Shown here: positions 23,430-24,992 of the stretch, in pieces
Position numbering within the stretch: the first letter of the stretch is position 1
Layout: each line of letters begins with the position of its first letter
Sequence record: PQ516281
DNA: 64,000 nucleotides
From: Escherichia phage vB_EQ1
Reading direction: 5' to 3' (one strand)
The notes under the pieces: generated by a model
What the model was told of the DNA's origin: nothing
The model's input: the letters and a program-made list of their open reading frames with translations, nothing else
Databases searched by the model: none
Program-made: the position numbers and the translations under genes

Positions 23430-24000
23430 AAAAGTTTCGGATTTGTTCCCAATTCAGAGAACGAAGATTATTACGAGAGTACTGAATTACTTCAATACCG
23501 GCTTGTTTTAGAATGTCGGCCCAATTTTCAGGAGATCTGTCATATAATTCCGCGTATACAACCTTTTTAATACCTGACTGCGTAATAGCTTTAGTGCAAT
23601 CAGGACACGGAGAAAGCGTAGTATATAACGTAGCACCTTCAATAGAATTACCTTTACGAGCTGCAAACAAAATTGCGTTCAGTTCCGCATGGATTTCGTT
23701 ATTAGCAGACCATGCACTATGAGCGGCCCTATGTTCTTTAGCCAAAACAAAATTATCCACCCGTCCAAATGCTGTAGTGCCTTCTTTATGCCCAGCAACG
23801 ATGACCGGGCTTGGTTTATTCTTCAACCAACCGTTTTCGGATGCATGTTCACAACAGTTAACACCACCGGCCGGGCTACCGTTATACCCAGTAGAAATAA
23901 TGCGCCCATCTTTTTCAATGACTGCGCCAACTTTCCATGAACAACATTTTGATTCTTGAGAAATCAGATATGCAATCTGAAGGTATGTGCTAGCTTTCAT
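23419..24000 (-). CDS. cd: dCMP deaminase
   Basis: 193 aa; zinc motifs HAELNAI and PCPDC; matches T4 Cd. Confidence 0.9.
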   Translation of the reverse strand: MKASTYLQIAYLISQESKCCSWKVGAVIEKDGRIISTGYNGSPAGGVNCCEHASENGWLKNKPSPVIVAGHKEGTTAFGRVDNFVLAKEHRAAHSAWSANNEIHAELNAILFAARKGNSIEGATLYTTLSPCPDCTKAITQSGIKKVVYAELYDRSPENWADILKQAGIEVIQYSRNNLRSLNWEQIRNFCGE

Positions 24001-24992
24001 TATTGAACCTTATTAATATAAGTTAACAGCTCTTTAGTTTGTTCCCAACTGATGCACGCATCGGTAACGGAAACGCCATAGGACATATTATCAGAAATTT
24101 TTTGATTTCCTTCATGTAGGAATGATTCTATCATAATTCCTTTGACCAAATCATTAGCTGCTAAATTTTTACCAATACCAATTTGATTGCTATAATGCCC
24201 ATCAGCGTTTGCATGGCTACAGTCAACCATTACATAATGATTCAGACCTACTGCACTTGCTTTGTTAGAAGCTTCTTGAATATCAGAAGAATGATAGTTC
24301 GGGCCGTTGGTCCCGCCACGCAATACAATATGCGTATTCCGATTACCTTCAGCTTCAACAATGCCTACAGTACCATCGACGTCCATACCCATATACCGAT
24401 GAGGCCAGGCGGCACTATACATCGCGTCTGTAGCTACTTTAATAGAACCATTGGTTGCGTTCTTGAAGCCTACGCACATCGGTAGACCTGAAGCAATTTC
24501 ACGATGTGTCTGACTTTCAGTCGTACGGGCGCCAATAGCAACCCATGAGAAAATACCAGAAAGATACTTAATCGTGAATGGGTCTAATACTTCAGTTGCT
24601 AATGGAAGTCCCATACGTAGAAGTTTACGACACAATGTTCGTGCAACTATAAGACCGTGGTTCATATCAAAACTTCCGTCAAGATATGGATCATTTACAA
24701 GACCTTTCCAACCTACGGTAGTTCGAGGCTTTTCAAAATAAACGCGCATCACTAACAGAACATTAGGAAGACGAGTTTGAAGTTCAGCCAGACGTTTGCC
24801 GTATTCAACAGCAGCAATAGGGTCATGAATTGAACAAGGACCTACAACAATAAGTTTGCGTGGGTCTTCACCGTTCATAATCGAATTAACTTGTTCGCGA
24901 TGAGAAGCCACTTGTGATGCGTAAGCTTCCGACAAAGGAATAATCTCAGCCAGTTCTTTTGGAGAAATAAGTTTTCCGACGACAGGTAACAT
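24000..24992 (-). CDS. 3-deoxy-D-arabino-heptulosonate-7-phosphate (DAHP) synthase, class I AroG-type
   Basis: 330 aa colinear with E. coli AroG: GPCSIHD, MRVYFEKPRTTVGWKGL(V/I)NDP, IGARTTESQ, DCSHAN, ESFLHEGNQ, TDACISWE; AAGGA RBS; stop overlaps cd ATG (TAATG). Confidence 0.85.
   Translation of the reverse strand: MLPVVGKLISPKELAEIIPLSEAYASQVASHREQVNSIMNGEDPRKLIVVGPCSIHDPIAAVEYGKRLAELQTRLPNVLLVMRVYFEKPRTTVGWKGLVNDPYLDGSFDMNHGLIVARTLCRKLLRMGLPLATEVLDPFTIKYLSGIFSWVAIGARTTESQTHREIASGLPMCVGFKNATNGSIKVATDAMYSAAWPHRYMGMDVDGTVGIVEAEGNRNTHIVLRGGTNGPNYHSSDIQEASNKASAVGLNHYVMVDCSHANADGHYSNQIGIGKNLAANDLVKGIMIESFLHEGNQKISDNMSYGVSVTDACISWEQTKELLTYINKVQ

Follow-up and report, generated by a model that had tools for sequence, protein, structure and literature searches.

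DAHP (3-deoxy-D-arabinoheptulosonate 7-phosphate) synthase joins phosphoenolpyruvate (PEP) and erythrose 4-phosphate (E4P) at the entry to the shikimate pathway. In the present study, we analysed a gene for such an enzyme in a 64,000-nucleotide stretch of Escherichia phage vB_EQ1 (sequence record PQ516281), which as a whole is called the window here. Among the described enzymes, the Tyr-sensitive AroF of E. coli (PDB 6AGM/6AGL) is the closest. The phage enzyme has in common with it the metal, PEP and E4P residues, the barrel with an N-terminal extension and a beta6a/beta6b hairpin, and Gly at the selectivity position. It differs in lacking about 9 residues at the N-terminus and about 10 at the C-terminus, in two loop deletions and in seven clade-specific substitutions in the inhibitor site, and its gene has an AT-rich codon usage, is carried by a lytic phage and lies behind an early phage promoter.

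The second group for comparison consists of the engineered alleles aroG P150L, S180F, F209S/A and D146N, aroF P148L and the variants of the N-terminal domain. The P150L form of AroG is completely Phe-resistant, and S180F, L175D, L179A, F209A/S and V221A are also feedback-resistant in AroG (PMC9529685), while aroG P150L and F209S are standard feedback-resistant alleles for raising the shikimate flux (PMC5879953). The phage enzyme is changed at the same positions P150, S180 and F209, and furthermore at Q151 and D155, which the literature also lists (PMC9529685; PMC5879953). The expected outcome would be alike, namely unrestrained carbon entry into the shikimate pathway, the resistance of the phage enzyme being deduced from these positions. 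In contrast to the engineered alleles, the phage combines seven natural substitutions with an N-terminal deletion, and selection has fixed this combination in at least five phage genera.

Cyanophages carry pentose-phosphate and photosynthesis genes as auxiliary genes that supply a rate-controlling host step. The gene studied here resembles them in that a lytic phage brings one host-type enzyme with control over flux, probably expressed early, and leaves the remaining pathway to the host. It differs from them in its target, which would be aromatic amino-acid and chorismate synthesis, in its occurrence in enterobacterial T-even phages, and in its apparent adaptation, which removes or alters allosteric control and so goes beyond gene dosage.

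The gene is already catalogued as accessory in Mosigvirus and in at least four further genera and is not a new discovery. PHROG 5045, or the GenBank aroF of JS09, HX01, the O157 typing phages, phiC120, PEi20, KpNIH-6, X20 and PM2, is the same gene at the same pseT-cd locus, with 98-100% identity to the window copy within Mosigvirus and 58-77% in other genera, and nothing sets the window gene apart from these relatives. What goes beyond the existing annotation is a rewritten inhibitor site, the relic of a foreign gene in the cassette that carries the gene, and a presence/absence polymorphism within one species. We hold it to be fairly probable that the gene provides an early-expressed, probably feedback-insensitive DAHP synthase that would push carbon into the shikimate pathway of the host once the transcription of host genes has ceased.

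The enzyme and its inhibitor site

The gene was delimited from the open reading frame list, profile searches, alignment and an AlphaFold model as follows:

24000..24992, minus strand: coding sequence of the DAHP synthase, 330 amino acids, class I-alpha, read as AroF-like

This reading frame is uninterrupted. Direct reading of the sequence found no in-frame ATG, GTG or TTG further upstream of its ATG, therefore the short N-terminus of the phage enzyme is real. The Pfam search gave PF00793 with E = 1e-74 (251 bits, cut-off 25.5), and the NCBIfam search gave the aroFGH model TIGR00034 with 427 bits (cut-off 173). The best-scoring NCBIfam model was NF009395 (454 bits, cut-off 343), which is named only '3-deoxy-7-phosphoheptulonate synthase'. 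The equivalog of the Phe-sensitive AroG, NF006723, was missed with 362 bits against 568, as was NF009396 of the Trp-sensitive AroH with 385 bits against 463, and the four NCBIfam matches listed for the protein include no model of KdsA, the 3-deoxy-D-manno-octulosonate 8-phosphate (KDO8P) synthase. The best match by sequence among solved structures was E. coli AroF (6AGM, E = 7e-105), and the identity to the E. coli enzymes was 51% for AroF (over 329 residues), 47% for AroG and 43.5% for AroH. Since the cut-off of NF009395 was passed and the best solved structure was that of AroF, we read the enzyme as AroF-like rather than AroG-like. An earlier note made from the DNA letters alone had labelled it AroG-type, which the missed NF006723 model, the higher identity to AroF and the Gly at the Ser/Gly selectivity position (AroG S211) do not support; the AroF/G/H family that it proposed was confirmed. 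In addition, the PHROG 5045 profile, filed under auxiliary metabolic genes, matched residues 1-330 along profile positions 8-337 of 341 (E = 1.2e-181).

The same note had described a full-length class I enzyme with four conserved metal ligands, and this was borne out by the profile scores and by the alignment. The ligands C53, H260, E289 and D311 correspond to AroG C61, H268, E302 and D326 and do not vary among 29 phage and 98 cellular homologues. Eleven PEP/E4P residues are equally invariant in this set; the positions checked, in AroG numbering, were R92, K97-T100, G163-R165, K186 and R234, among them the KPRT motif. This motif is a marker of E4P-specific enzymes. The AlphaFold (AF2) model of the window protein reached a pLDDT (predicted local distance difference test) of 93.7 and a pTM (predicted template-modelling score) of 0.92. 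It places helices at 11-17 and 22-39 before the barrel, and it predicts extra strands at 198-203 and 209-214 that correspond to the beta6a/beta6b hairpin of class I-alpha enzymes. Compared with the solved structures of the N. meningitidis enzyme and E. coli AroG, its template-modelling score was 0.95-0.96 and its root mean square deviation 1.4 Å. The best explanation of these findings is that the frame encodes a catalytically competent class I-alpha DAHP synthase, an activity predicted from its residues and fold.

To describe the inhibitor site, we scanned 329 aligned columns for those in which the phage clade has one residue in at least 90% of sequences and the cellular enzymes another in at least 85%. 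Seven columns separate the two groups in this way, in AroG numbering P150I, Q151K, D155G, L156I, S180P, F209Y and T223A. The substitutions are fixed in 28-29 of the 29 phage sequences, and 89-100% of the cellular enzymes have P, Q, D, L, S, F and T at these places. Five of the seven columns are among 17 inhibitor-site positions that had been listed before the scan (Fisher p = 4e-6). The inhibitor main chain is contacted by Q151/Q152 and S180/S181, and D155 is named as an inhibitor-site residue that stabilises the site (PMC9529685); L156 is its neighbour. Furthermore, all sequences of the phage clade have only 48-52 residues before the catalytic Cys, as against 58-95 in the cellular enzymes, so that 8-10 N-terminal residues are missing and with them those that align with AroG D6/D7 and AroF N7/N8. 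Changes of the N-terminus reportedly abolish inhibition, as Jossek et al. are said to have found for AroF in 2001 and as the title of Zhang et al. of 2014 indicates.

At ten tabulated site positions, 27 of the 29 phage sequences, from at least five genera, read V-P-I-K-G-I-P-Y-G-A, and seven of the ten distinguish the clade. Where a conserved feedback site would have its N-terminal residues 6-10, P150, Q151, D155, S180, F209 and their neighbours, the phage enzymes thus carry a deletion and other residues. A comparison of the allosteric residues had been proposed in the earlier note, and it proved the most informative of the checks. Because the inhibitor site appears rebuilt by the N-terminal deletion and the seven substitutions, the phage enzyme is most likely insensitive to feedback by Tyr, Phe and Trp.

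Altered inhibitor sites were also seen outside the T-even clade. The unrelated 79-kb Aeromonas phage HJ05 has an independently acquired DAHP synthase with 38% identity (L008 3899..5062, annotated as hypothetical), whose site positions are non-canonical (A150, H151, P155, P180, V209), S180P being the same change as in the T-even clade. A further divergent site (A150, G151, P180, H209) was found in P0097 (metagenome contig L017 8001..9083), the sister in the neighbour-joining (NJ) tree. P0097 lies beside DctPQM and UvrC in a bacterial chromosome and was rejected as an independent phage example; since it is bacterial, altered inhibitor sites occur naturally in cells too. Two other candidates were set aside: the 'Acinetobacter phage MD-2021a' contigs (L020) have the bacterial neighbours cobS and ribazole phosphatase and look like host contamination, and the 'Bacteriophage sp.' scaffolds are unverified and unannotated. 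Among the candidates examined, HJ05 stands as the only separate phage acquisition.

Locus, cassette and distribution

The features around the gene are given below, the Shine-Dalgarno sequence having been read directly from the DNA:

23419..24000, minus strand: cd, dCMP deaminase (PF00383, PHROG 174), whose start codon overlaps the DAHP synthase stop
24993..25002, minus strand: a good Shine-Dalgarno sequence, AAGGA (25002..24998), and 5-nt spacer, followed by the DAHP synthase ATG
25001..25111, minus strand: relic of a foreign cd.2 allele, of which the 3' third is left; it reads (E)SYLITIENGHKSEHYQLSLSNPVKGIVESESVYIS and a stop, with no start codon of its own; part of the imported cassette
25104..25115, minus strand: left recombination joint of the cassette (cd.2 stop TAA, cd-like ATGA, AGCTA), leading into the foreign cd.2 fragment
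25113..25349, minus strand: resident cd.2 (DUF7320), intact, of the T4/RB69 type, first gene of the predicted early transcript that carries the cassette
25379..25407, minus strand: T4-type early promoter (TTTACA, 17 nt, TG-extended TACTAT), upstream of cd.2

The gene order is 32, frd, td, nrdA, nrdB, rnlA, alc, pseT, cd.4, cd.3, cd.2, DAHP synthase, cd, 31.1, 31 and rIII, which is the classic T4 early cluster. The stop codon TAA (24002..24000) and the ATG of cd have base 24000 in common, giving TAATG. This overlap had been described in the earlier note, and the translational coupling of the DAHP synthase to cd holds. The T4 record annotates an early promoter at the equivalent place between cd.3 and cd.2, and no promoter-like site of the gene's own was found within the relic or spacer upstream of it. 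With an early promoter before cd.2 and none in the relic, the DAHP synthase gene most likely belongs to the early class and shares a transcript with cd.2 and cd. Its composition agrees with the earlier description of its codon usage as phage-like: the GC content is 41.2%, and that of third codon positions (GC3) is 29.0%, compared with 30.4% in cd, 31.7% in pseT and 50-57% in E. coli aroF, aroG and aroH.

The spacer of 120 nt between cd.2 and the DAHP synthase holds a fragment of 36 codons from a foreign cd.2. This relic has its counterpart in the C-terminal third of the Kanagawavirus and Marfavirus cd.2 homologues (...SPVSYLITIEKG...GRVESHSVYKF and stop; BLASTP E = 1e-7 against Entb_45) and is unlike the resident cd.2 of Mosigvirus. 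In some relatives it is annotated as a small hypothetical protein (phage F2 gp164, 'HX01_0229'), but it is probably not a gene. The layout of a stop, 8-9 nt and the ATG before the DAHP synthase is also common to Kanagawavirus (Entb_45). As the upstream spacer is a foreign cd.2 relic, Mosigvirus received the DAHP synthase from another T-even lineage as a cassette, together with the 3' fragment of cd.2. For the left junction, a duplicated 5' end of cd was considered and given up in favour of a short microhomology followed by the foreign fragment: the joint TAATGAGAGCTATCTC and the genuine cd 5' end TAATGAAAGCTAGC have AGCTA in common, and a probe for the empty site aligns over positions 1-114 in cassette-bearing genomes, about 15 nt beyond the cd.2 stop. 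On its left side the cassette entered by illegitimate recombination, and on its right side presumably by homologous recombination within cd.

In a comparison of the window phage with phiC120, which represent different Mosigvirus species, the cassette of 1113 nt is 99.6% identical (synonymous divergence, dS = 0.009), while the flanking cd is 93.5% (dS = 0.33) and cd.2 96.2% identical. Because the cassette is far more alike than its flanks, this single pairwise comparison argues for a recent lateral spread of the cassette within Mosigvirus. In the same pair of phages, the cd.3 homologue (DUF7355, 25411..25686, minus strand) has 71% DNA identity and the genes on either side of it 94-97%; it is a second mosaic patch within the same 3.5 kb.

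The window belongs to a Mosigvirus. The region is 100% identical to Escherichia phage MRostami-2023e and 98-99.7% identical to many RB69-like Mosigvirus phages. A tblastn search found the protein in 212 phage records, many of them annotated as phospho-2-dehydro-3-deoxyheptonate aldolase, aroF or DAHP synthase. About 139 records carry the cassette, and the probe across the empty cd.2/cd junction found 11 with the empty site. The gene is, as the earlier note stated, outside the canonical set of T4, which has cd.1 between cd.2 and cd. In RB69 and moha, cd.2 abuts cd with the same TAATG overlap and the DAHP synthase is absent; moha is assigned to the same species as moskry, which carries it. The phage vB_EcoM_005 was considered as a remnant from which the gene had been deleted and was dropped, being a Dhakavirus with a different layout. 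The same pseT-cd locus holds the gene in Kanagawavirus, Marfavirus, Winklervirus and Bragavirus.

The T-even DAHP synthases are monophyletic (NJ bootstrap 98/100), their divergence parallels that of the flanking cd, pseT and gene 31, and the ratio of nonsynonymous to synonymous divergence (dN/dS) between genera is 0.14-0.21. These findings together indicate one old capture by the T-even lineage, which was followed by purifying selection. A recent capture from the host, as 'host-like' in the earlier note would suggest, does not fit the 51% identity to E. coli AroF. The lineage of the cellular donor, which that note had hoped to find, cannot be named, since the enzymes of Planctomycetota, Pontiella, Pseudomonadota and Enterobacterales are all 50-55% identical.

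Role in infection and alternative explanations

We propose the following course for the phage. A T-even lineage would have captured the DAHP synthase once, long ago, and Mosigvirus would have gained it later, in a cassette that came from a different T-even lineage. The T4-type early promoter would drive it together with cd.2 and cd, so that the enzyme would be made in the first minutes of infection, and its rebuilt inhibitor site would let it escape feedback by Tyr, Phe and Trp, as do the feedback-resistant AroG and AroF mutants of metabolic engineering. The full annotation of the Mosigvirus phage F2 has no other shikimate, aromatic or folate-biosynthesis gene besides frd and td; therefore the phage would give only the first step, which is committed, feedback-controlled and flux-controlling, and the conversion of DAHP to chorismate would be left to enzymes already present in the host. 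In this way the supply of Phe, Tyr and Trp could be sustained despite the shut-off of host transcription and whatever the amino-acid pools. A possible further product is p-aminobenzoate, derived from chorismate, and folate for the synthesis of dTMP and hydroxymethyl-dCMP. The proteins of the window contain 4.35% Phe and 4.09% Tyr, which gives modest support for an aromatic demand. The Tyr share of the E. coli proteome, at about 2.8%, is below the window figure. Of the two functions considered in the earlier note, the redirection of PEP and E4P flux fits these findings, and recruitment into sugar or base modification finds no support in the unchanged substrate residues and in the mismatched distribution of the isomerase discussed below.

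Several points weigh against this proposal. Falling pools would by themselves release the AroG, AroF and AroH of the host from inhibition, so that the need for deregulation is argued and not measured. RB69, moha and T4 manage without the gene, and any benefit must therefore be conditional. The searchable literature on the phage gene amounts to one sentence on a DAHP-synthetase domain in the phiC120 genome paper (PMC8022965) and contains no enzyme assay. Within the phage clade, 14 of 19 pocket positions are at least 96% conserved, compared with 118 of 310 other columns (38%; p = 0.003). This fits a maintained function of the site, and regulation by Tyr through another geometry, or by another ligand, may be involved. 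The inhibitor-site residues D146, L179, the Pro aligned with AroF P148 and the Gly at S211 are kept, the beta6a/beta6b hairpin is predicted to be retained in the AF2 model, and the substituted amino acids (I, K, P, Y, G) differ from those of the characterised resistant mutants. The conserved pocket, the kept D146, Gly and equivalent of AroF P148, and the hairpin, with most of the N-terminal extension retained in the model and the Tyr-sensitive AroF as the closest enzyme, would suit an ordinary regulated AroF-like DAHP synthase that is still inhibited by Tyr and merely adds enzyme capacity after host expression is shut off. We regard this as unlikely, as Q151 and S180, the residues that hold the main chain of the inhibitor, are Lys and Pro in 28-29 of 29 sequences (PMC9529685), D155 and P150 have become Gly and Ile, and the N-terminal residues equivalent to AroG D6/D7 and AroF N7/N8 are missing. 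The conserved pocket could alternatively have been retuned to a new effector, such as a deoxynucleotide or another infection-state or phage-specific metabolite, coupling shikimate entry to the state of infection. The uniform ten-position pattern across at least five genera, its stronger conservation relative to the rest of the protein and the new cationic Lys at Q151 would all follow from constraint by such binding. However, the conservation also fits a structural role, since the site is located at the interface of the dimer and along the path by which signals reach the active site. The data point to no particular ligand, and the loss of the N-terminal segment takes away part of the pocket; the data leave room for a new ligand, to which we give a low probability.

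A further explanation, compatible with the proposed feedback-insensitive enzyme, regards the gene as a valve for carbon flux, in which the drain of E4P and PEP would pull the transketolase reaction of fructose 6-phosphate and glyceraldehyde 3-phosphate to E4P and xylulose 5-phosphate and raise the pentose phosphates for nucleotides. Its logic is deduced from textbook pentose-phosphate stoichiometry and is likened to the pentose-phosphate auxiliary genes of cyanophages. A deregulated enzyme would make an efficient sink, and the gene does stand among early genes of nucleotide metabolism (frd, td, nrdAB, pseT, cd), its translation being coupled to that of cd. Nevertheless, the device would be wasteful, with one PEP spent per E4P removed, and the position beside cd is not fixed, as one or two small open reading frames intervene in Winklervirus X20 and Bragavirus PM2, and we consider it distinctly unlikely as the chief role. 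Recruitment as a sugar-pathway enzyme for DNA or surface modification, either using arabinose 5-phosphate (A5P) as a KDO8P synthase does or linked to the arabinosyl-hydroxymethylcytosine (arabinosyl-hmC) of RB69-like phages, is very improbable. Mosigvirus does also encode an arabinose-5-phosphate isomerase, a phosphoheptose-isomerase-like protein and a nucleotidyltransferase, and PF00793 is common to DAHP synthase and KDO8P synthase. Yet the E4P/PEP residues, KPRT included, are identical to those of genuine DAHP synthases, and the protein scores as an aroFGH equivalog, with no KdsA model among its listed matches. The link to arabinosyl-hmC and the A5P isomerase was rejected on distribution: RB69 has the isomerase and no DAHP synthase, the Klebsiella and Proteus phages have the synthase and are absent from the isomerase hit summary, and the Acinetobacter and Yersinia phages show the reverse. 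Finally, the gene could be a non-functional passenger hitch-hiking in a hyperplastic region, given that the content of the pseT-cd slot differs between phages (T4 has cd.1 there, RB69 nothing, other genera extra frames) and the cassette bears a dead gene fragment. This is hardly credible in view of the low dN/dS across genera, the invariance of every catalytic residue and the keeping of the gene in many more records than have the empty site.

The three sugar-related genes are annotated in phage F2 (L015) at 32511..33146 (arabinose-5-phosphate isomerase), 35013..35399 (phosphoheptose-isomerase-like protein) and 4729..5742 (nucleotidyltransferase), and they probably make up the module for arabinosyl-hmC that has been described in RB69. 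The isomerase was also found in T-even phages of Acinetobacter, Yersinia, Serratia and Kosakonia.

T-even phages of Escherichia, Klebsiella, Enterobacter, Edwardsiella, Serratia, Erwinia and Proteus carry this apparently naturally deregulated DAHP synthase. If the proposed role is true, aromatic amino-acid and chorismate supply would join the short list of host pathways boosted by lytic coliphages, and the spread of the cassette among Mosigvirus genomes would be explained. It would also offer a natural, selection-optimised scaffold for feedback-resistant DAHP synthase in metabolic engineering, with seven substitutions and the N-terminal deletion. If, on the other hand, the pocket binds a new effector, the phage would have rewired the allosteric control of host shikimate entry and not just removed it. 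The idea is unsurprising in kind, and its value is that of a concrete and cheaply testable hypothesis, for which moskry with the gene and moha without it, in one species, are a natural pair.

Other observations in the window and its relatives

MotA-box-like sites (WWTGCTTYA) occur 33 times in the whole window, compared with 9.9 expected from shuffles, which fits T4-type middle promoters. The one at 23112..23120 (minus strand), upstream of gene 31, is at the position of a known T4 middle promoter. A match inside the DAHP synthase coding sequence (24489..24497) was taken as chance, since it lacks a suitable -10 element and its bases code for conserved residues. RefSeq NC_054913 labels phage F2 as Tequatrovirus, and its sequence is Mosigvirus-like. 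In F2 (L016 36718..39877), nrdA is annotated as two pieces around a homing endonuclease, and in moskry (L009 20794..23049) it is a single intact gene.

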